64,000 nucleotides of DNA from Lama guanicoe (taxonomy: Eukaryota), in the NCBI GenBank assembly GCA_013239625.1, contig MU056134.1, positions 1,686,477 through 1,750,476 of the forward strand, given 5' to 3'. Each line of letters starts with the position of its first letter. Position 1 is the first letter of the stretch. Positions 2,946 to 43,632 of this stretch are shown here, piece after piece. The translations under genes were made by a program, and so were the position numbers. The notes below the pieces were generated by a model. It was given only the letters and a program-made list of their open reading frames with translations, was not told the origin of the DNA and ran no database searches.

Positions 2946-3158
2946 CTTCCCCAGGAAGTGCCTGCGGTAGGCCCTGGCTTCGCCCTTGCACTCAAGCTTG
3001 TAGCCAAACGTGCTGGGGCTGAGGCTGTCCTCTTCCTCCTCCTCACAAGTGCTGCTGCCCACGGAGGTCGGCGTGCTCACGTTCTCCGGGTCCTCGATCC
3101 AATAGCCCCCAAACTGGGGCAGGACGATCAGGGGGTACGGGCCTCCCTTCTCCACAAC
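2946..3158 (-). CDS. RAP1GAP2: RAP1GAP2 coding exon (~exon 7), 213 nt, VVEKGGPYPLIVLPQFGGYWIEDPEN...EARAYRRHFLGK
   Basis: Acceptor ctccag|GTT and donor AAG|gtgagg; contains the Rap1GAP-family LPQFGGYWIE motif; lies within ORF 2685..3428. Confidence 0.97.
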
Positions 3159-3570: not shown

Positions 3571-3603
3571 CTCATCGATGCTGGGGTACGGGATGTAGTC
3601 GTC
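3571..3603 (-). CDS. RAP1GAP2: RAP1GAP2 coding exon (~exon 6), 33 nt, DDYIPYPSIDE
   Basis: Acceptor ggcag|GAC and donor GAG|gtagga; DYIPYPS is conserved in the Rap1GAP family. Confidence 0.96.
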
Positions 3604-4332: not shown

Positions 4333-4377
4333 CTTGTTCTTCTGGGGTCCCGGCTTCTGCTCTTCAAGCTTGATCCC
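4333..4377 (-). CDS. RAP1GAP2: RAP1GAP2 coding exon (~exon 5), 45 nt, GIKLEEQKPGPQKNK (symmetric, skippable)
   Basis: Acceptor tttctgcag|GGG and donor AAG|gtgggc; phase 0-0; matches RAP1GAP2. Confidence 0.95.
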
Positions 4378-8422: not shown

Positions 8423-8458
8423 CTGCATCTTCTCCAGCATCTCGAAGAACTCTGCCGA
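8423..8458 (-). CDS. RAP1GAP2: RAP1GAP2 coding exon (~exon 4), 36 nt, SAEFFEMLEKMQ
   Basis: Acceptor gtctttcag|TCG and donor CAG|gtgagc; phase 0-0; first half of the GoLoco-like motif. Confidence 0.95.
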
Positions 8459-9619
8459 CTGAAAGACACAAAGAAGGTGGGGAGAGAAAGATGGAGCGTC
8501 AGCCAGGAGGTCTGCTGAGAAAGCCTTCCTACTGACTGGAAGCTCAGCCCAGGGCTTCCCCAGGGACAAAATTCATTTGGATCAAGAGAGAAGATAATTT
8601 GATTTCGCCTTTGCAGGGCTGGAGGGCCAGAGCACTTCATACAACAAGAGGGGGAAAAAAGCATGCCTGGGCTGGCAAATGGCCCTGGGGAAAACAGTTA
8701 CTCAGTCTCGGTCAAGAGGGAGGGGCCCGAGGGGGCCCCAGGATTCAGCCTCCAACAGGATTCATGTTTGGGATGTTTTCAATCCAACAGGGTGCCAAAA
8801 TGTCCCACACAAGTAGTTTTCCAACTTTTGTGGCAAGATAGCCTTTCTGTCTCCTCACACAAAGCCTCACTTAGAACTACATCTAAAACCAGTAAAAGCA
8901 GAGATGCTCCGGCAAAGGCAGCCATGGGAGCTTGAGCCCCTGAGGTGCCACCTCTGCCTGCCGGTCCCCTACCTTTTGCGACCCAAGAATTTGTGAGCAA
9001 AGCCTGAAAACCATTGAACCATTGAACCGCAGCCTCCAGTGGCCTGTATGGGTTATTTTTTTAAATCTCAAACTCCATCAGCCCAAACTTTTAACCTACT
9101 TTGGTGCCACCTTTGTAAACTGCAGGTGAGACAGAAAGGAGAAAAAGAAAGTGGAATGGAAGGGTGAGGGGCTGAAAGCTCCACTCTAACAAAACACACG
9201 CAGAGGTTCCCCCCAGAAGTGTCCCCACTTCCCATTCCATGAAAACAGCTACACTTTCTTGTCGTAAGATCACTGCCCACATCTGGGCACTGGCAAACCA
9301 TGAATATGTGAGCGTGCAGAACAGACAGTCCCCAGATGACTAGGAGACAAAAGGAAGCAGCGAGAAGGAGGACTGAGCATGTCCTTATAGCTTCTTCATG
9401 CAGAGGTAGAGCATCCACCCTCCCACCTTCTGCAGGCACCAATGGACCAGAACTGCCTGCAGCCCCCACCACCCTCAGAATTCTAAGGGGACCACCATGG
9501 AAAGGACCCTTGTGGAGTCATCTGCAGAGACCTGGCCCTGCTGCAGACTCCAAGTGACCTCTCCCAGCCTAAATCTGGCCCATTAGTGGCAGAGTCTCTC
9601 ACCTCCCCACCAACAATGC

Positions 9620-11428
9620 CAATTACAATAGCACCAAAGAGAATAAAGTACTAGGTGTAAATTTAACAAAAGTGTGAAACCTTTATTCGGAAAAGTACAA
9701 AACATCGAAAAGAAATTAAAAGTTCTAAATAAATGGAAATAAATCCATGATTGCAATTTGAAGAGCCAGTATGATTAAGATAGCCATGCTCTCCAAAATG
9801 ATCTATAGATTCAATGTAATCTCTATGAAAATCCTAGCTGGATCCTTTATAGAAACTGAAAGTCTGATCCTAAAGTTAATATGGAAACTCAAGGGGTCGA
9901 GAATAGCCGAAACATTCTTGAAAAAGAAAAATGAGGTTAGAGGACTCATACTACTCAATTTCAAAACTTCCTGCAAATCAAAAGTAATGAAGATAGTGTG
10001 GTACTCACAAGGATAGACTACAGATCAATGGAATAAAATTTAGAGTCTAGAAGTAAATCCACATATCTATGGCAATTGATTTTCAACAAGAGGGCCAAGA
10101 CTACTTAGTGGGCTCTCTTCACCAAATTGTGCTGGGAAAACTGGATAGCCACACGCNNNNNNNNNNNNNNNNNNNNNNNNNNNNNNNNNNNNNNNNNNNN
10201 NNNNNNNNNNNNNNNNNNNNNNNNNNNNNNNNNNNNNNNNNNNNNNNNNNNNNNNNNNNNNNNNNNNNNNNNNNNNNNNNNNNNNNNNNNNNNNNNNNNN
10301 NNNNNNNNNNNNNNNNNNNNNNNNNNNNNNNNNNNNNNNNNNNNNNNNNNNNNNNNNNNNNNNNNNNNNNNNNNNNNNNNNNNNNNTCAGTGGACACTAG
10401 AAAGTGAAAAAACAGCCCACAGATTAGGAGAAAATATTTGCAAATCATATATCTGACAAAAGACTCATACCTAGAATATAATAAAAAGTTAAATAACTGA
10501 ATTTAAATAATAATTCAATAATAAAAAGTTAAATAACTGAATTTTAAAATGAGCAAAGAATTTGAATTAAATATTTCTCCAAAGAAGACATACAAATGGA
10601 CAACAAGCACATGCAAAACTGCTCAACATCGTTAGTCATTGGGAAATACAAATCCAAACCACAATGAGAGATCACTTCCCACCAACTAGAATGNNNNNNN
10701 NNNNNNNNNNNNNNNNNNNNNNNNNNNNNNNNNNNNNNNNNNNNNNNNNNNNNNNNNNNNNNNNNNNNNNNNNNNNNNNNNNNNNNNNNNNNNNNNNNNN
10801 NNNNNNNNNNNNNNNNNNNNNNNNNNNNNNNNNNNNNNNNNNNNNNNNNNNNNNNNNTCCACTCCTAGGCATATACCTCCAAGAGAAGTGAAAGCATGTG
10901 TCCACTCTAAGACTTGTACACCCATGCTCACAGAAGCAGTATTCCTAATACCCAAAGTGGCAATAACCCAAATGTCCATCAGCTTTTGAATGAACAAATT
11001 ATGGCATATAGTTNNNNNNNNNNNNNNNNNNNNNNNNNNNNNNNNNNNNNNNNNNNNNNNNNNNNNNNNNNNNNNNNNNNNNNNNNNNNNNNNNNNNNNN
11101 NNNNNNNNNNNNNNNNNNNNNNNNNNNNNNNNNNNNNNNNNNNNNNNNNNNNNNNNNNNNNNNNNNNNNNNNNNNNNNNNNNNNNNNNNNNNNNNNNNNN
11201 NNNNNNNNNNNNNNNNNNNNNNNNNGAAATGGGAGATTTGGAGGATAATAGCTAAAGAATATAGGGTTTCTTTCTGAGGTGATGAAAATGTTCTAAAATT
11301 GACCGTGCTAATGTTACCACATTACAAACTCTGTAAATATACTAAAAAAACCCCATTAAACTGTACACTTTAAATGAGTGGCTTTATGGTATGTGAATTA
11401 TATCTTAATAAAGCTGTTCAAAAAAAAC
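9620..11428 (+). mobile_element. L1 (L1MA/MB-like) ORF2 3' part plus 3'UTR, degenerate, with three N-gaps
   Basis: ORF 9771..10016 resembles L1 ORF2 (IYRFN, LILK.IW, YS/KIVWY); 3'UTR gatgaaaatgttctaaaattga...aataaagctgtt followed by an A-tail. Confidence 0.9.
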
Positions 11429-11437
11429 CACTTTCCA

Positions 11438-11565
11438 GGGGGAGAGTATAGCTCAGTGGTAGAGCACATGCTTAGCATGCATGAGGTCCTGGGTTCAATC
11501 CCCAGTACCTCCATCGAAGTAAACAAATAAATAAAATTTTTAAAAACAAAACAAAACAAAAAACC
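11438..11565 (+). mobile_element. vic-1-type tRNA-Ala-derived SINE
   Basis: A box tagctcagtgg, B box ggttcaatcc, A-rich tail, TSD aaccactt(t/g)cca. Confidence 0.88.
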
Positions 11566-11813
11566 AACCACTTGCCATTCAAAAAGAAAGCAGTAGATCT
11601 ATATTGCTTACATAAGATGCTCTCTTTCCAAGATTTATTAAGTCAGGGGTCAGGGGGTAAATCAGAATATCACATAGAATATGATCTCATTTTTATAAAC
11701 ACAAAACCTAATATTACCTATATGTGTGTATATAAATACACAGAAAATACTACAAAATAATATATTTAGAAGGCCGTGGAGAGCTACTGAGGTTTGCGTA
11801 CAGTAGAAAGATA

Positions 11814-11999
11814 CAGTCGTCCCTCAGTATGTGCAGGGGATTGGTTCCAGGGCCCCATGGATACCAAAATCCCAGGATGCTCAAGTTCCTTCTACCAAAC
11901 GTCATGACACAGTTGCCCCTCTTTTATCTGCAGGTTCTACTAACTGGGGATCAAAATTGAAATCTTATGTTGCATCCACAGATACAGAGGGCCAACTCC
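11814..11999 (+). mobile_element. MER2-like Tigger MITE
   Basis: ta|cagtcgtccctcagtatg...ggataccaaaatcc 5' end and gatacagagggccaact 3' inverted terminus. Confidence 0.8.
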
Positions 12000-12400
12000 A
12001 CAGTAGGCAGCAGAATCCAGCGGTCAAAGCCAGGTCTGGAAAGCGGCCGACCTGCTGCTGCCCTGCTGTGTGGCCCAAGGCATGTGATGCAGTCTCTCTT
12101 ACTTCCCTCACCTGAAAACAGACCCCTGCCTTTCAGGGCTCACCTGAGGATGAACTGAGAACGTGGACAAGAAGTGCCCAGCCAGGGCCTGGTCCACAGC
12201 CAGCACTCAGTAAACAGCAGCTACTATGAGGAACTATTAGAACACCCACTCCGGAAACAAGCTTTATCCCATTAGGAAATGGTCTAGTACCTTCAGGATA
12301 GTTAGTGTTTCCTGATTTAGAGCACTTAGCTTTTCTTGACTTCATTGGTCTTCCCAGAGGCAGTGTGTTTAGATTACTTGTAAAAATGGGTCTATTTCCT

Positions 12401-12657
12401 ATACACAAACTAGTGAATATAACAAAAGAAGCAGACTCACAAACATAGAGAACGAACTAGTGGGCACCAGTAGGGAGGGGAGGGACAACACAGGGGTCAG
12501 GGAATGAAGAGGTACAAACTATTGGGTATCAGATGGGCTCAAGGATGTATTATACAACACGGAAAATACAGCCAATATTTTGTAATAACTATAAATGGAA
12601 AGTAACCTTTAAAAATTGTATAAAAAGAAAATAGAAAAAATTTTAATTAAAAAAAAG
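12401..12657 (+). mobile_element. 5'-truncated L1 3' end
   Basis: gaagcagactcac...gccaatattttgtaataactataaatgga followed by an A-tail; TSD aaaa(t/a)gggt(c/t)tatttcct. Confidence 0.85.
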
Positions 12658-13869
12658 GGTTTATTTCCTGCAGATGCTCCATGGCCTCAGGGCTGGCACA
12701 GGTGGTAAGATGAAAGGGCTGTGATTCAGTCTCAGCCCTGAGTAATACACTGGGTGGACAACAGCTACGTGGACAGTGTCCAGGAGCAGAAATTGGCCAG
12801 TGGCAACTTGGCCTCCACGGGCCTGGCCCCACTTTATGATGACTTGTTGAACTTTCCAATGGGGCAGTTCCAGCCCTGGCAAAGAGCAAGTCTCCTTTTC
12901 CACCCAGGAACAGGGTAACTCAGGCCAGCCCAGAACAGCAGCTCCAGCCACTCAGTCCCACCCTCATCCACACCCCCTGAGATTGCGTCACACAGCCACA
13001 GGCGCACAGCAGGCACTCAATAAATGCTCACAGACTCACTGGCATCATCCCACAGGCCCTTCCAGGGCATCCTTCAGAAGGGGCTGCCCCTCCATCAGGA
13101 AGCCAGGCACTGGATTTTCACAGAGAAATGTAATTCGGCCTCCTCCTCAGCAGCAGTGGCCCAGCTGTCTAATTTATTATTAGCAACAGCCCTAGCCACC
13201 CAAATCAGAGCCGTGGCCAGCGTTTCCCCTCGGGCTCTGCTTTAACAGCCAGTCAAGTAGGCCGTGAAATCATCACCGAGAGCCAGTGCCCAGCCGAGGA
13301 AACCACAGGCTGGGCCCCAAGGTTCGGTGAGGGTTCAAGCCCTGTCCTCCCCACCTCCCAGTATAGAAAGCACCTGGTCTTCGGACAAAGCGAGTCCTTG
13401 TGGGGAGAAGCTGAAGACGGCCCAGGGCAGCAGGAGCAGGAATGAACAAGCACTGCAAGGCCAGCCTTGAGGAGTCTTCCTGACGCCCCTACTTGCCCAT
13501 CCCAGTGTCAGCCCCTGGCCTAGGCGGTGAAGCAGTAGAAGCAAAGGAAGGAATTCAGGGTGTGCGAGTCTAGGAGGGCCACGGCCCCATCTCAGCGCCC
13601 TGTGCACAGACCGCACCCCTCCCCCTGGACAGCCAACTTATCCTCAATGCGTGCCCCCAGTAAATCGCATCCAGACACAGGTCCTGTTCCTAACAAGCCT
13701 CCCTCCCCCTCTCCCCTGTGCAACCTTCATGCTCCTCTTTCCCTTCTTTGGTCTCCCTTCCCACCAGCTCACACTGAACACTGCTCCTCAGCGGCTGGGG
13801 TCCCGCAGAGGCACGGCCTCAGCTCCATCAACCTGGGCCAGGAGCCTGTAGGGCTCTCTTATCTACGGC

Positions 13870-14005
13870 AATGGTGATACAACAGAATCACCTGGAGGGC
13901 TTGTTAAAACACAGGGTCCTGGCCCAGCCCCTAGAGAATCCGCAGTTCTAACAAGTTCCCAGGTGAAACTGATACTCTTGATCCAGGAACTGTGAGAACC
14001 ACTGA
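13870..14005. mobile_element. MER5-like MITE
   Basis: agaatcacctggagggcttgttaaaacacag...tctaacaagttcccaggtga...gagaaccactg. Confidence 0.7.
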
Positions 14006-14214
14006 CCTATAGAATTAATCATGTTTAATGCAGGAGGTGTGTGAAAGGGACAAACCTGGCCAGAGCAGAGATGGGGCAGGGAGGAAGGGTGAGGAGGATG
14101 GCTGAGTCTTTACAGGACATCTTAAAAATTAGGCAGATTTCTATTTAAATCTGTAAGAAAGGATTTGAAAATGCAAATGACTGCCAGTACCAGGCAAGTA
14201 ACATAAAAGAATGA

Positions 14215-16830
14215 GGAGATAACAATAGATTGAATCAGTAATCAAAAACCTCCCAACAAAGAAAAGTCCAAGATCAGCTGGCTTCCTGGTAAATTCCACC
14301 AAACATTTAAAGAAGAATTAGCACCAATCCTTCATAAACTCTTCCAAAAAACTGAAGGGGAGGGAACACTTCCTAACTCATTCTATGAGGCCAGCATTAC
14401 CAAAACCATACAAAGAANNNNNNNNNNNNNNNNNNNNNNNNNNNNNNNNNNNNNNNNNNNNNNNNNNNNNNNNNNNNNNNNNNNNNNNNNNNNNNNNNNN
14501 NNNNNNNNNNNNNNNNNNNNNNNNNNNNNNNNNNNNNNNNNNNNNNNNNNNNNNNNNNNNNNNNNNNNNNNNNTATAATACATCACACTAACAGAATGAA
14601 GGGGAAAAAAACCACACAGTCATCTCAATTGATGCAGAAAGAGCACTTGACAAAATTTAATAACTTTCCTTGATTAAAAAAAAATCCAGAAAATTAGGAA
14701 TAGAAAGGAACTTCCTCAACATGATAAAGGGTGTTTTGTTTTTTTTTAATCCATGCTAACATCATGCTCAATGATACTGAAAGCTTCCCCCAAAGATCAG
14801 GAACAAAACAAGGATGCCCACTTTCACAACCACTAATCAGCATATGGAAAGTTCTAGCCAGAATAATTAGATAAGAGAAAGAAATGAAAGGCATTCAAAT
14901 TGGAAAGGAAGAAATAAAACTATCTCTATTTGCAAATGACATGATCCAATATAGAAAACCCAAAGAATCCACAAAAACACTACTAGAGCTAATAAAGGAA
15001 GTCAGCAAACTTGCAGAGTACAAGATCAACACACAAAAGTCATCTGTAGTTCTATACACCAGCAATAAACAATCTGAAAAAACAACTCTATTTGCAAGAG
15101 CATCAAAAAGAATGAAATATCTAAAGTAACTTAACCAAGGAGGTAAAAGACTTGTACACTGAAAACTAAAACTTATTGATGAAAGAAATGAAAGAAGACT
15201 TAAATAAATGGTACGACGTCCCTCGTTCATGGGATGAATGACTTAGTATTTGTAAGATGGCAATAACCACCCAAAGTGATCTACAAACTCGGTCCAATCC
15301 CTATCAAAATCCCAGCTGGGATTCTTTGTAGAAATTTAAAATATGATCCTAAAATTGATGTGGAAACTCAAGAAACTCAGGATAGCCAACACATTCTTGA
15401 AAAAAACTCACAATTCCCAATTTCAAAACTTACTACAAAGCTACAGTGACCAAAACAGTGTGGTACTGGCATAAGGGTAGACACACAGACCAATGGAATA
15501 GAATTTAGAGTCTACAGATAAATCCATTCATTTATGGCCAACTGCCTCTTGACAACAGTGCCAAGCTCAATCAGTGGGAAAAGAACAGTCTTTTCAACAA
15601 ATGGTGCTAGAAAAATTGGATACCCAGATGCAAAAGAAATGAAGTTCGACACCTTTGCCTCACCATATACAAAAATATAAAAAGCAACAACCTAAACCTA
15701 AGAGCTGAAACTGTAAAACTCCTAGATGAAAATGTAAGGGTAAATTCTCATAATCTTAGATTTGGCAATAGATTCTTAGATATGATACCAATTTTTAAAN
15801 NNNNNNNNNNNNNNNNNNNNNNNNNNNNNNNNNNNNNNNNNNNNNNNNNNNNNNNNNNNNNNNNNNNNNNNNNNNNNNNNNNNNNNNNNNNNNNNNNNNN
15901 NNNNNNNNNNNNNNNNNNNNNNNNNNNNNNNNNNNNNNNNNNNNNNNNNNNNNNNNNNNNNNNNNNNNNNNNNNNNNNNNNNNNNNNNNNNNNNNNNNNN
16001 NNNNNNNNNNNNNNNNNNNNNNNNNNNNNNNNNNNNNNNNNNNNNNNNNNNNNNGCTCTGCATCATTAGTTGTGGGGAAATGCAAATCAACACCATAATG
16101 AGATACCACTTTCATACCCTNNNNNNNNNNNNNNNNNNNNNNNNNNNNNNNNNNNNNNNNNNNNNNNNNNNNNNNNNNNNNNNNNNNNNNNNNNNNNNNN
16201 NNNNNNNNNNNNNNNNNNNNNNNNNNNNNNNNNNNNNNNNNNNNNNNNNNNNNNNNNNNNNNNNNNNNNNNNNNNNNNNNNNNNNNNNNNNNNNNNNNNN
16301 NNNNNNNNNNNNAATAGGTACTCAGACAAAAACCTGCACACGAACATTGTTCACCTGTANNNNNNNNNNNNNNNNNNNNNNNNNNNNNNNNNNNNNNNNN
16401 NNNNNNNNNNNNNNNNNNNNNNNNNNNNNNNNNNNNNNNNNNNNNNNNNNNNNNNNNNNNNNNNNNNNNNNNNNNNNNNNNNNNNNNNNNNNNNNNNNNN
16501 NNNNNNNNNNNNNNNNNNNNNNNNNNNNNNNNNNNNNNNNNNNNNNNNNNNNNNNNNNNNNNNNNNNNNNNNNNNNNNNNNNNNNNNNNNNNNNNNNNNN
16601 NNNNNNNNNNNNNNNNNNNNNNNNNNNNNNNNNNNNNNNNNNNNNNNGGCTGGAGTTGCGAGGGAGAACGGAGAGCAACTCCTTTAAGGGATTTTATTTC
16701 AGGGTGATGGAAACAGTTTAGAACTAGATGGAGGTGACAGATGCACAACATTGTGAATATACTAAATGTCACTGAATTGTTCACTTTAAATGATTGATTT
16801 TATGTTATGTAAATTTCCCCTCAACACAAT
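14215..16830 (+). mobile_element. L1 ORF2 (RT region to 3'UTR), degenerate, with four N-gaps
   Basis: ORF 14884..15129 gives [20 protein letters not shown] (L1 RT, decayed FADD motif) and YKINTQKS; SGTKQGCPLS upstream; L1 3'UTR at the end. Confidence 0.93.
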
Positions 16831-16879
16831 AACAAGAGTTGGGGGATGAAACACTGCTGAACTGAAGAGTGCATACTCC

Positions 16880-17085
16880 TTCCAAAAGAGACAGCTGCTG
16901 CTCACCTCCGCCAGGCTGCGAGCAAAAATGCAAGTTCACTGTCACCAGAGTTTGCAACTTTTCAAGACAAGCCAGAAATCCAAATTTGGATGTGAAGTCT
17001 CCCAATTTGTATACATTGATAACCAATTCAATTTTTGTTCATCTCTACGTGGACCAAACAAAATTCATCTATGAGCCAAGTCAGT
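16880..17085. mobile_element. Probable old hAT-type MER fragment
   Basis: caagccagaaatccaaatttggatgtgaagtctcccaattt resembles hAT-Charlie MER sequences; family not resolved. Confidence 0.4.
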
Positions 17086-17394
17086 CCGTAAGACGCAACT
17101 TCCAAGCTCTGCTCTGTACAACAGGGAGCCATCGAATGTTCCTGAGCTGGAAAATGAGACGATATAAGGAAAGTTTAGTGAGCCCCAAGGTATCCTGTGC
17201 TGGAGATATGTGATATGCCAGGCACTTGGGGCACTGAATCAGGCACACTACAAATACCACTCCGTGAGTCCCACAAGTGACTAGGGAGGAAGGGTTACAG
17301 AGATAGGAGGGACTGAATGATTAAGCAACTCACCCAAAGTGAACACACTTAGTAAAGGCAAAAGCCAGATTCGAGTCCAGATCTGTCTGCGTTT

Positions 17395-17850
17395 GCCAAC
17401 TCCACATCTCACATGCATGTCTGATAGGACTCTCAGATTTAACTAGGCGCAACAGAACACTCAGTAACTCCTTTTTTTTTTTTTTTAAATCATCAGCTCT
17501 TTCCCTCAAAAACTTTCCTCCACCCTAGCCAGTCTCCGCATCGTCCACTCATCCTGACGCTCAGGACAAAACTCCCAGGGTCATTACTGATTTCTTCTTC
17601 CTCATTCCCCACACCCAGTTGACCTATAAGTTCACTGTCAGAACATATCCTAAGTCCAAGCACTTCTCAGCTCCATCATCTTCATCACCCCTTATCAGGA
17701 CCCGGCAGCAGCCTCCTCACCAGCCTCCCGGCCTCCACACCACTGCCTCCCTAATTAGATCCCCCAACAACAGCTACATGGCCTTTCTGGAAGATTCGTC
17801 AGATGACATCCGTCTCCAGCTTAAAACCCTCCAAGGTGCCCCTCCACACC
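17395..17850 (+). mobile_element. L2 LINE fragment
   Basis: Pyrimidine-rich L2 motifs (ctcaggacaaaactcccagggtcat, gcttaaaaccctccaa). Confidence 0.65.
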
Positions 17851-18846
17851 CCTGCCAAGGTCTGGGGGGCCAGGCCATTTCTGTTTGTAACACAGTCATC
17901 AGGCTCACACCCCAGTACCCAGTGGTGGCACAGCCTGAGATTGAGGGGATCCTTGGTCCAACCCCCCAACAAATGTCCAATTGCTCCCCGCATGCATCCC
18001 TAAACTGTCACCCTCAGCTCCCCTAGAGAAAGGAAGATACATAGCCCAGGAAGAGAAAGAAAGGAAAGAACACAGCCCACCCGTGCCTGCAGGAAGCAGG
18101 TCATGAATGAGAGGAGGCCAGTGGTCCCAACCCGGCCGAGTCAGCCTGGGCCCCCTTGTTGACCAGGAGGGACACAAGCACCTGGCAGAGCTGAAACAGG
18201 GAGCCCACAGAGCCTCCAGGGACAACCTGACTTGGCAGGAGAGGACCTTGACTCCCAGGCGAGCCGGAACGTCACACACACCACCCTGTGTCACACTAAC
18301 CGCACGGCTCGGAGTTTCTGTGACAGGACAGAGTCCCCTGCCAGGGCCATCCTGGGCACACAGCACAAAGGGGAGAGGGCTGGACCCACAGGCCTGGCCA
18401 AGCGTCTGGAGCCAGGTGGAAGCCAACTACAGAGTCCCTCCCTCACCTGCCCTGCCACCCACCCTGGAACAATGCCTGCAGCTGGCTGGGGGTCCCAGGC
18501 TGGCCCAGCACCAGAAGGCCTTGTCAGGGGATCACAGAGGTGAGCTTTGCCCGGTTCCCATGCCAGGACCCCCACCTCAGATCTCCAGGCCAGGAAGGAA
18601 AAGCTCTGGTCCCCAACTCTATACCACGCCCTCCCACATCCACTCCCCACACATAGTCCCCTCTGTCCCTGACCTCCATTCCTCCTTCCCCTGAGTGACA
18701 GGTGGCTTCTGTAGCCCACAATAGGCCAACAGCCACCAGGAGCTCCCTGCCAGGTGACAGCAGGAGGGGCTCTGGCTCCTCCCCAACCCACCCACTCCAG
18801 GCAGCTGGTGTGGACAGGCATTCCCCCATAGCTGGGGGACACTCAC

Positions 18847-18873
18847 CAAAAGGTTCTTTAAGAAATCCATCAT
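18847..18873 (-). CDS. Putative coding part of an alternative first exon (MMDFLKNLL)
   Basis: AAG ATG ATG G in good Kozak context, 27 nt to the donor TTG|gtgagt, phase 0 matching exon 8458; sequence-only inference. Confidence 0.4.
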
Positions 18874-18961
18874 CTTCCACCAGTGCCTTCTTCCCCTGTG
18901 AGTCGGGGGGCCCCGTCTGTCTGCCTGAGCAGCCCTGTAGCTGTGGCTGCCACCACCCCAG

Positions 18962-18985
18962 CTGCTGCTGCTGCTGCTGCTGCTG
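18962..18985. repeat. (CTG)8/(CAG)8 trinucleotide repeat
   Basis: Seen directly. Confidence 0.97.
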
Positions 18986-19070
18986 ACGTTGGACAACTTC
19001 CTTAAGATCAAACAAGGAACTGCAGGATTTGGGTGTCCGCCCAGAGCTGTTATTCCACATTGACTAGCCC

Positions 19071-19083
19071 TGACCTTTGACCC
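19071..19083 (-). promoter_or_regulatory. DR1 nuclear-receptor motif GGGTCAAAGGTCA
   Basis: Exact RGGTCA-A-AGGTCA direct repeat; function not shown. Confidence 0.45.
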
Positions 19084-21139
19084 TCTCCTTCTCCGGGGCT
19101 GTTCTTCTGGGGAGCTCAGGGCCAGTGGAGCCACCCCACATCACACATAGGAAGTGCAAGGGGTCCCTCCCAGCAGGTTGTGAGGGGAGACCCATCTGCG
19201 GGTCAGGGTGCAGGGAGCATTCCTGTCCTTCCAGCCTTATCTTGAGCAAGTTCCCGGTGCTGCTGGCCTGTGATGTGGGCTGGGAGGCAGGACGGGGGCA
19301 CAGGATGCCAGGGACACAGCAGGTCTGAACGAGACGCAGTGTCTGATGTGCTGTGAGACTCAGGGCAGGCCCCCTGGGCTTGGGGCCTCAACTTTCCCAT
19401 CTGTGAATTAAGACGTCCTATATGTAAGAATAAAAGCAAAGCAGAAGAAAGACAGCAGGTGCCTGCATCTTGAAAGGCATTCACGTGGACCTCACAGAGC
19501 CTGAAACCTCCTACTTAAAGGTTTGAAGCAACAGCGCAAAAAGTAAGGCGTGACTCCTTTGCAGGTGGGACTTGCAGGAGGGGACAGAGGCCCAGGGAAC
19601 TGCTTTCTTTCACAAAACAGCCTGAGTTTTGTTTTTTAATTATTGCACGTATTACTTTGGTCTAAATTTTTTTTCATGTGCCTTAAAAAAGAGAGCAGTT
19701 CTCATGTCCTGTGGCTATCCCACAAGAAAAATTAAAAACAAATAAAGCAAATGGCTTGGGAAGACTCATATGGCATCTGTGGCCAGGGGCCCAGAGGCAT
19801 CAAGTGCTGTGTTATTAGCAAGAGTGAGAAGCCAGGCCCCAGAGCTCAGCCCAGGGCTCACCTGGGTCTCGGAGTCTCTTCCAGCACTAACAAACACATC
19901 ACATTTGATATCCATCCACGGTCCTTGGTCCCGTTCCAGTTTGGGGAGAGTGGCGATGTCCCAGCTCAAAAGGAAAGGAATTAATTTTAAATCTCTCAAA
20001 AAAAAAAAAAAAAAGGCAGCATGGTGTGGAAGAAATAGCCCTGGACTTAATGTGGCTATGCTACGTACTGAGCTGGTTACTCAGCCTCTGAGCCTTAGTT
20101 TCCATATCTGTAAAATGAAGAAATCTAGCCCATCTGCACGGGTATGGTGTATATAACATGTCCAGGGAGGGTAAGACACAAATACCCTCAGTCAACGGCA
20201 ACTATGATCTTCATTCCTTCCTCCCAGCGCTGGCTCCACACTCACTCTTCATGCCTCAGCCCCCAAGACAGCGTGAAAAGTACCCCCCCACCTGCTCAGC
20301 CCCACCTAGGCGCCCCATCTGGTCTCTGCCCTCCCCACTTCAGCCCAGCCTGCTTCCAGACCCACAGCCCACCTCCCTTCTCCAGCACTTGTGCGAGCTC
20401 TGGAAACCCGAACAGCACCCATGGGAGATCAGAGGGGCCAGGAAATGGCCCCAGGCACTGAGGGACAGCACGGCTCCATCGAGATCAGAGAAGGTCTTGG
20501 CACGGGTCCATCCCTGGGTGCTTCAAGGGACAGTGAAGGTCAGGGAAGGGAGGAAGGGGACAGAGTTCTAGAATGTGAAATGGACCATCTCACACATTTG
20601 GAAGAGTCATGGGCTAGAGGGAACCCTGGCTGCGGAGAAGGCTGGCAAATGTTCCTTCCAGCAATTCCGATCTAGAAGACTATGTTAGGAGAAGGGGTAT
20701 GGCCAAGCCCACCTAAAGGGGCCTGACTGGGCTGTCCCTAATGAGCCCTTTTCTCCCTCCCCCGGAGAAAGGAATCCTGGATAAGGTTGCTATGTCCTCA
20801 GCATCCTCCCTGTTTCCTCCCACACCTGCTTCTGGCTCATGTGCATTCCTGCTCTGAACCAATGAGTCAATAGCAGACCCCACCCCCACCCTACTCTGCA
20901 GGCAGGCTCCGCAGGACATGCCACATCCAGAAAACTTCTGCAACCCTTTTGGCCACAGCACCCCAGGGCCCAGGAAGCCTTGTGGTCCAAGCCCCCTGCC
21001 TCTGTGCAGGAATGCATTCAGAGGCTTCAAGGAAGGAGACAGATAGGCAAGTAATTTATTAATCACCTCTGGGCCAGGCACTGGCTCAGGACTGGGGACC
21101 CTAGGAAGATCAGCCTCAGTTCCTCTCCTCCTACCCACT

Positions 21140-43547: not shown

Positions 43548-43632
43548 CTTCATGGTGGGAGGCGCGGTGAGAGGAGGCGACAGCGGCCGGTCTGGGAGGG
43601 TCACATCCGAGCTGTTGGCCAGCTCCTGCTTC
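43548..43632 (-). CDS. RAP1GAP2: RAP1GAP2 coding exon (~exon 3), 85 nt, KQELANSSDVTLPDRPLSPPLTAPPTMK
   Basis: Acceptor cctcacag|GAAG and donor AAG|gtaaga; starts in phase 2, ends in phase 0; lies within ORF 43455..43739. Confidence 0.96.

Follow-up and report, generated by a model that had tools for sequence, protein, structure and literature searches.

A likely alternative first exon of RAP1GAP2 in the guanaco, corresponding to human isoform 6

Background

Does RAP1GAP2 possess a second, internal start in the guanaco and, if so, which parts of the protein would be lost and gained by using it? The question is raised by the window studied here (the whole stretch of 64,000 bases that was analyzed, from Lama guanicoe contig MU056134.1), in which an earlier note, made from the sequence alone, had proposed an internal promoter and an alternative first exon of nine codons. 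In the available parts of the published work examined, regulation of Rap1GAP2 concerns the S7/S9 form in platelets: 14-3-3 binds phosphorylated S9 and lowers Rap1GAP2 function, phosphorylation of S7 by PKA or PKG frees 14-3-3, and a TKxT motif of Rap1GAP2 binds Slp1 (PMC11139668). A form insensitive to the S7/S9 switch would lead to a different level of Rap1 activity (adhesion, secretion) in the tissues that use it.

Gene context

The exons and signals of the gene in the window are the following:

43632..43548, minus strand: upstream proline-rich exon (KQEL...TMK) of the long isoforms, missing from the short one
18985..18962, minus strand: (CAG)8 in the presumed 5' leader, its length differing among species
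18873..18847, minus strand: coding part of the alternative first exon, MMDFLKNLL, identified through orthologous tetrapod isoforms
18846..18841, minus strand: splice donor GTGAGT, phase 0, read in the sequence
18846..8459, minus strand: presumed intron 1 of the short isoform (10,388 bases), its junction taken from orthologous proteins
8458..8423, minus strand: shared exon SAEFFEMLEKMQ, first half of a degenerate GoLoco-like motif (Pfam GoLoco below cut-off)
4377..4333, minus strand: 45-base exon GIKLEEQKPGPQKNK, second half of the GoLoco-like motif, absent from the human and armadillo short isoforms
3603..3571, minus strand: RAP1GAP2 exon DDYIPYPSIDE
3158..2946, minus strand: RAP1GAP2 exon of 71 codons, with 100% identity to alpaca and camel proteins

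The locus belongs to RAP1GAP2: its exons are orthologous to those of the known gene (3158-2946 is 100% identical in alpaca, wild camel and dromedary), and it is single-copy, with one genomic match. Residues 134-539 of the camel protein, which comprise the dimerization and GAP domains, are covered downstream on the same contig with no stops, and the Rap_GAP (PF02145) and dimerization (PF21022) domains at 194-299 and 319-498 are both intact. The TKTT site (the TKxT Slp1 motif) is also encoded downstream on the contig. The region 18700-19300 likewise has a single match in the genome; a duplicated gene fragment is ruled out by the single genomic match together with the intact downstream exons. On the same contig, some 94 kb further upstream than the alternative first exon, is the exon that encodes the S7/S9 motif.

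Structure of the exon

The exon carries a tandem start on the minus strand, ATG at 18873 followed by ATG at 18870 (A at -3, G at +4), and its nine codons end at 18847, directly before the donor. An acceptor AG at 8460-8459 opens the 36-base phase-0 exon 8458-8423. All of these elements had been described in the earlier note and were found in place: the two ATGs and the context of the second one, the nine codons, the GTGAGT donor, the phase-0 acceptor at 8458 and the (CAG)8 upstream (18985-18962). Further upstream, an out-of-frame ATG at 19060 that the earlier note had overlooked, in a weak context, opens a frame of 87 codons that overlaps the coding start.

An ATG followed by a donor is by itself not above chance as a sequence pattern. 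The 35-kb intron contains 22 GT(A/G)AGT donors. For seven of them an in-frame ATG with an open frame lies no more than 300 bases away, and three of these seven have a strong Kozak context. We consider the exon real because of its orthology, not because of this pattern. The claim that no pyrimidine-rich acceptor is present upstream turned out to be overstated: six AGs with at least 11 pyrimidines out of 15 occur within 630 bases upstream of the ATG (the real acceptors have 11-14). These six correspond to the background rate (278 of the 2491 intronic AGs have a tract of this kind).

Conservation of the short N-terminus

We gathered 463 proteins through protein searches and cluster look-ups (cluster representatives and 15 members per cluster, not a census). 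The exon-4 motif is present in 359 of them: in 297 it is preceded by the upstream exon, 13 proteins begin with MK, 31 begin in other ways, and 18, of which 17 come from named species, carry a candidate-type peptide (F/Y-L-x-x-hydrophobic-hydrophobic) directly before exon 4. A lizard variant missed by the pattern is counted among the 31 and brings the named species to 18. The human record NP_001424917.1 (RefSeq isoform 6, earlier XP_011522044.1, 668 residues) is the only curated one, the other 17 being predicted models. It joins MDFLKYLF directly onto the exon-4 peptide and thus shares peptide, junction codon and exon with the window; it differs in having the second ATG only, in reading YLF for the window's NLL and in skipping the 45-base exon. 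The little brown bat (Myotis lucifugus, XP_023603134.1) has a peptide identical to the window's, and close variants are found in armadillo, three birds, four turtles, a lizard, five frogs, a newt and a caecilian. Over the 18 species M2, D3 and F4 are each kept in 17, whereas L5 and the hydrophobic character of positions 8 and 9 are kept in all 18.

The orthologous isoforms also bear on the nature of the exon. At the protein level, none of the 18 has the upstream exon ahead of the peptide, as would be expected of a first exon; 13 have their start inside the peptide and five are extended in frame from the same leader region. The leader and peptide of armadillo align to the window at 19060-18902 and 18912-18847 (E 3e-17), which fixes the positional orthology of the DNA. 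In translated footprints, read by eye, the donor is compatible with GT(A/G)AGT in all ten orthologous ORFs that are long enough. The structure proposed in the earlier note, a first exon spliced in phase 0 to 8458, is that of human isoform 6 and of 17 other tetrapod isoforms, and the peptide comparison that it had suggested returned an orthologous N-terminus in 18 species. Conservation in human and mouse had been named as a further check: the second ATG and the junction codon are indeed shared with human, but no rodent protein with this start is among those seen (cluster representatives, 15 members per cluster). The same holds for the four camelid proteins seen.

Outside the tetrapods, bichir and reedfish have a related peptide, MLSYLRSA, at the same junction, which scores better against the tetrapod peptides than 9986 of 10000 shuffles. 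This points to an origin of the peptide in early bony vertebrates. Among the teleost proteins sampled (incompletely) no ortholog of the peptide was found, and unrelated short starts occupy the same acceptor instead.

Summarizing, the window very probably contains, in its camelid version, the conserved alternative RAP1GAP2 first exon that is used in human isoform 6, with a likely internal promoter, a predicted splice to 8458 and a predicted product of about 685 residues: a GAP without the S7/S9 switch. The novelty implied by the earlier note did not survive, given that the isoform is already in RefSeq; the exon is catalogued, and no gene or isoform is added here. What the comparison adds is depth: the nine-residue start has persisted across tetrapods from frogs to humans and probably dates back to bony fish, and it is accompanied by a conserved upstream block (see below), which argues that isoform 6 is functional and not annotation noise. 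In the literature listings and abstracts consulted we found no study of its promoter or function, although promoter atlases in supplements may list the start. The short isoform is thus known as an annotation (a curated human record) and functionally uncharacterized.

Expression of this isoform most likely proceeds as follows. Transcription would start from an internal promoter at or just above the block 19060-18986, with a DR1 element beside it, and give a first exon with a CAG leader. Translation would begin at the tandem ATG-ATG, mostly at the second one, because this has the better context and is the sole ATG kept in human. Splicing in phase 0 would then yield about 685 residues (772 for camel isoform X1, minus 96, plus 9), or 670 if the 45-base exon is skipped. 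Transcripts starting above 19060 would also contain the 87-codon frame, out of frame, overlapping and with a weak start, which would dampen translation.

RNA evidence

RNA was compared over 18200-19700 for four of the 24 listed runs, from four studies on related animals (90-99% alike). Among the contigs of these four runs there is no junction, no loose end at 18847 and no start in the region compared, outside of which the acceptor lies. Unspliced contigs span the donor in three runs (depth 3-13; they may be pre-mRNA or DNA), and the fourth run has no cover. RNA contigs lose rare forms and the tissues are few; it is from conservation of the sequence that we infer use of the exon in camelids. 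One contig from a single study (X9) ends at 19096 and was not counted as a start.

It might be argued that this camelid has inherited the exon without expressing it, or with its translation muted, either through a little-used promoter or through the upstream ATG at 19060 diverting ribosomes. The missing junction in the four runs, the absence of the start from the four camelid proteins seen and the 87-codon frame overlapping the coding start would all agree with this. Nonetheless, the peptide is identical to that of the bat and the donor is intact, and in the related-camelid contigs no substitutions are listed for 18835-19044, against five in 18806-18834 (30 bases). The same out-of-frame arrangement occurs in five other mammalian ORFs and the context of the upstream ATG is weak, whereas the RNA consists of contigs from few tissues. 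We therefore judge a silent exon to be improbable.

The conserved upstream block

Three further features concern the sequence above the exon:

19060..18986, minus strand: non-coding block of 75 bases, conserved in mammals and in part also in sea turtles; within it are the upstream ATG (19060), a GC box (19042-19037) and, at 19002-18996, an ETS core
19083..19071, minus strand: putative DR1 nuclear-receptor-type candidate element GGGTCA-A-AGGTCA, a sequence motif
19149..19155, plus strand: AGGAAGT named by the earlier note, probably incidental

With the window's 19060 frame as query, 15 proteins were matched, of which a 643-residue glutamine-rich protein was excluded before counting and 14 orthologous ORFs were kept. 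Here 19060-18986 is near-identical, followed by a CAG run of varying length and then by a variable linker. The run is shorter in the orthologous ORFs, and the related-camelid contigs are gapped there. In two sea turtles the leader also matches 19021-18980 (1 and 3 of 1000 shuffles), so that, judged from these alignments, part of the block is as old as the amniotes.

Relative to the peptide, the block is in frame in five ORFs and out of frame in five others as well as in the window. This variation indicates that the block is kept as DNA or RNA and not as protein, with the caveat that an ORF search favors likeness to the 19060 frame and thereby selects open frames. The block is probably a core promoter or 5' leader. 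The alternative, in which it is kept as coding sequence (a polyglutamine N-terminal extension or an upstream ORF) and not as a promoter, could explain its near-identical translation in armadillo and the 14 ORFs, and why it is in frame with the exon in armadillo, the two sea turtles and five ORFs. It does not fit with the out-of-frame cases just mentioned, with the block's ATG being replaced in one of the 14 ORFs and separated by a frameshift in three, or with the different ATG used by the sea turtles; moreover, the search by likeness itself selects open frames. All in all this alternative seems somewhat less probable still than a silent exon. An internal cassette exon with its acceptor AG at 19001 or 18997 (in frame with 150 bases, or a frame-shifting poison exon with 154) is the least probable of all: although a tract of 11 pyrimidines in 15 ends in AAG at 19001 within the most conserved bases, the base at -3 is A and not the C of all five real acceptors, no orthologous protein (0 of 18) has the upstream exon ahead of the peptide, the armadillo and sea-turtle models continue across the acceptor position, and the conserved Met would be left unexplained.

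Returning to an internal promoter as the preferred reading, the DR1 element (two RGKTCA half-sites one base apart) is present as a perfect copy at the place given in the earlier note, and is the sole one in the window; 30 of 100 shuffles produce one by chance. Its translated footprint, in which wobble bases are not seen, is compatible with a perfect copy in five of the six orthologous ORFs that reach it and has one mismatch in the sixth; among the differences listed for the related-camelid contigs, none affects it. Tissue-specific drive by a DR1-binding receptor (HNF4, COUP-TF or an RXR dimer) is possible, though less likely than not. RAP1GAP2 itself is progestin-induced, and the alternative-promoter cases in the available part of that study are other genes (PMC4045674).

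For the ETS core the outcome is mixed. The AGGAAGT that had been named at about 19149-19155 does exist on the plus strand, but is not conserved: A19152T breaks it in related-camelid contigs (two runs), and as one of 28 copies in the window we reject it as incidental. A second core, which the earlier note had overlooked, lies within the block on the minus strand (19002-18996), and its footprint reads K-E-V in 13 of the 14 ORFs and Q-E-V in the other. Over the whole window AGGAAGT occurs more often than expected, in 28 copies against 13.3, a number reached in 0 of 100 shuffles.

Consequences for the protein

Two claims of the earlier note about the product are borne out. The short isoform drops the S7/S9 14-3-3 region, whose exon lies about 94 kb upstream, and the orthologous isoforms are built in the same manner; it keeps the GAP domain, since the exons for the GAP and dimerization domains follow on the contig without stops. 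Human isoform 6 likewise keeps both domains. In comparison to platelet Rap1GAP2 (Q684P5), the camelid short form has the same gene, GAP domain and TKxT site, but not residues 1-55 of the platelet form, which take in S7, S9 and the proline-rich exon; a hydrophobic peptide of nine residues is gained instead. With S7/S9 absent and TKxT kept, the protein would retain dimerization, GAP activity and TKxT and switch Rap1 off outside the control of 14-3-3, PKA and PKG.

Loss of the 14-3-3 site is, on the sequences at hand, not special to the short isoform: the motif occurs in 22 of the 199 proteins examined, and its loss is common to most isoforms. What sets the short isoform apart is that the proline-rich exon is lost and the conserved F-L-x-x-hydrophobic-L peptide gained. 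The nine new residues have about an even chance of forming a short amphipathic helix, a docking or membrane-targeting tag ahead of the GoLoco-like remnant. The hydrophobic moment of the first ten residues (0.50-0.61, p 0.047-0.14) is borderline, given that this stretch was picked afterwards and that the sequences are non-independent. A long amphipathic helix of 18 residues, extending into exon 4, was rejected (moment 0.20-0.33, shuffle p 0.2-0.6), and so was a strict LxxLL nuclear-receptor box, most orthologs having LxxFL, LxxIL or LxxLF. In an AlphaFold2 model of human isoform 6 (alignment of ten rows) the mean pLDDT was 32.7, and its helices at 2-7 and 10-18 were disregarded.

GoLoco/GPR motifs are marked by an acidic-Gln-Arg triad. 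In the window the corresponding triad is E-Q-K, which lacks the Arg, and Pfam GoLoco/GPR (PF02188) gives 10.9-13.6 bits in eight of the 12 proteins scanned (cut-off 25.1) with no match in the other four. Lys occupies the last position in camelid, bat, chimpanzee and most of the amphibians seen, and Arg (E/D-Q-R) in mouse, penguin, owl and two turtles; on this evidence some lineages may have a more intact motif. The GoLoco motif of Rap1GAP2 is reportedly inactive.

The paralog offers a parallel: the N-termini of Rap1GAP1a and Rap1GAP1b set the preference for GTP- or GDP-bound G-alpha-o as well as the membrane compartment, in a paper with zero occurrences of RAP1GAP2 (PMC12329598). Both cases have alternative N-termini that alter what stands at or before the GoLoco motif; unlike in Rap1GAP1, the RAP1GAP2 motif is degenerate, and in the short isoform extra residues precede a remnant that is retained in full. 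By analogy, a Rap1GAP1-like role of the N-terminus is a lead only. In its most far-reaching form, the internal promoter would be as old as the bony vertebrates and DR1-driven in mammals, and kinase/14-3-3 control would be traded for a hydrophobic helix that retargets the GAP to the membrane or to Gi/o/z, as a counterpart of the Rap1GAP1a/1b switch. Taken as a whole we think this unlikely, though less so than a silent exon.

Other starts and elements in the intron

Internal starts seem to be hosted repeatedly by this intron. Many vertebrate models start at a Met within exon 4 or at MK just before it, and in eels, bonefish, poeciliids and catfishes this acceptor is joined by short N-termini of their own, which are unrelated. 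The stretch 12837-12730 on the minus strand matches the beginning of a red-deer gene model (36 residues, 78%) that is joined to acceptor 8458, with Ile in the window in place of Met; conserved intron sequence has probably misled the gene prediction here. Another stretch, 44560-44251 (minus strand), matches the beginning of a RAP1GAP2 model from white-tailed deer and contains in-frame stops in the window. Finally, RNA-contig loose ends were observed in the intron at 18207, 18369 and 18599 in one run (X1); two of these share letters, which suggests a short repeated intronic element around 18207-18599.
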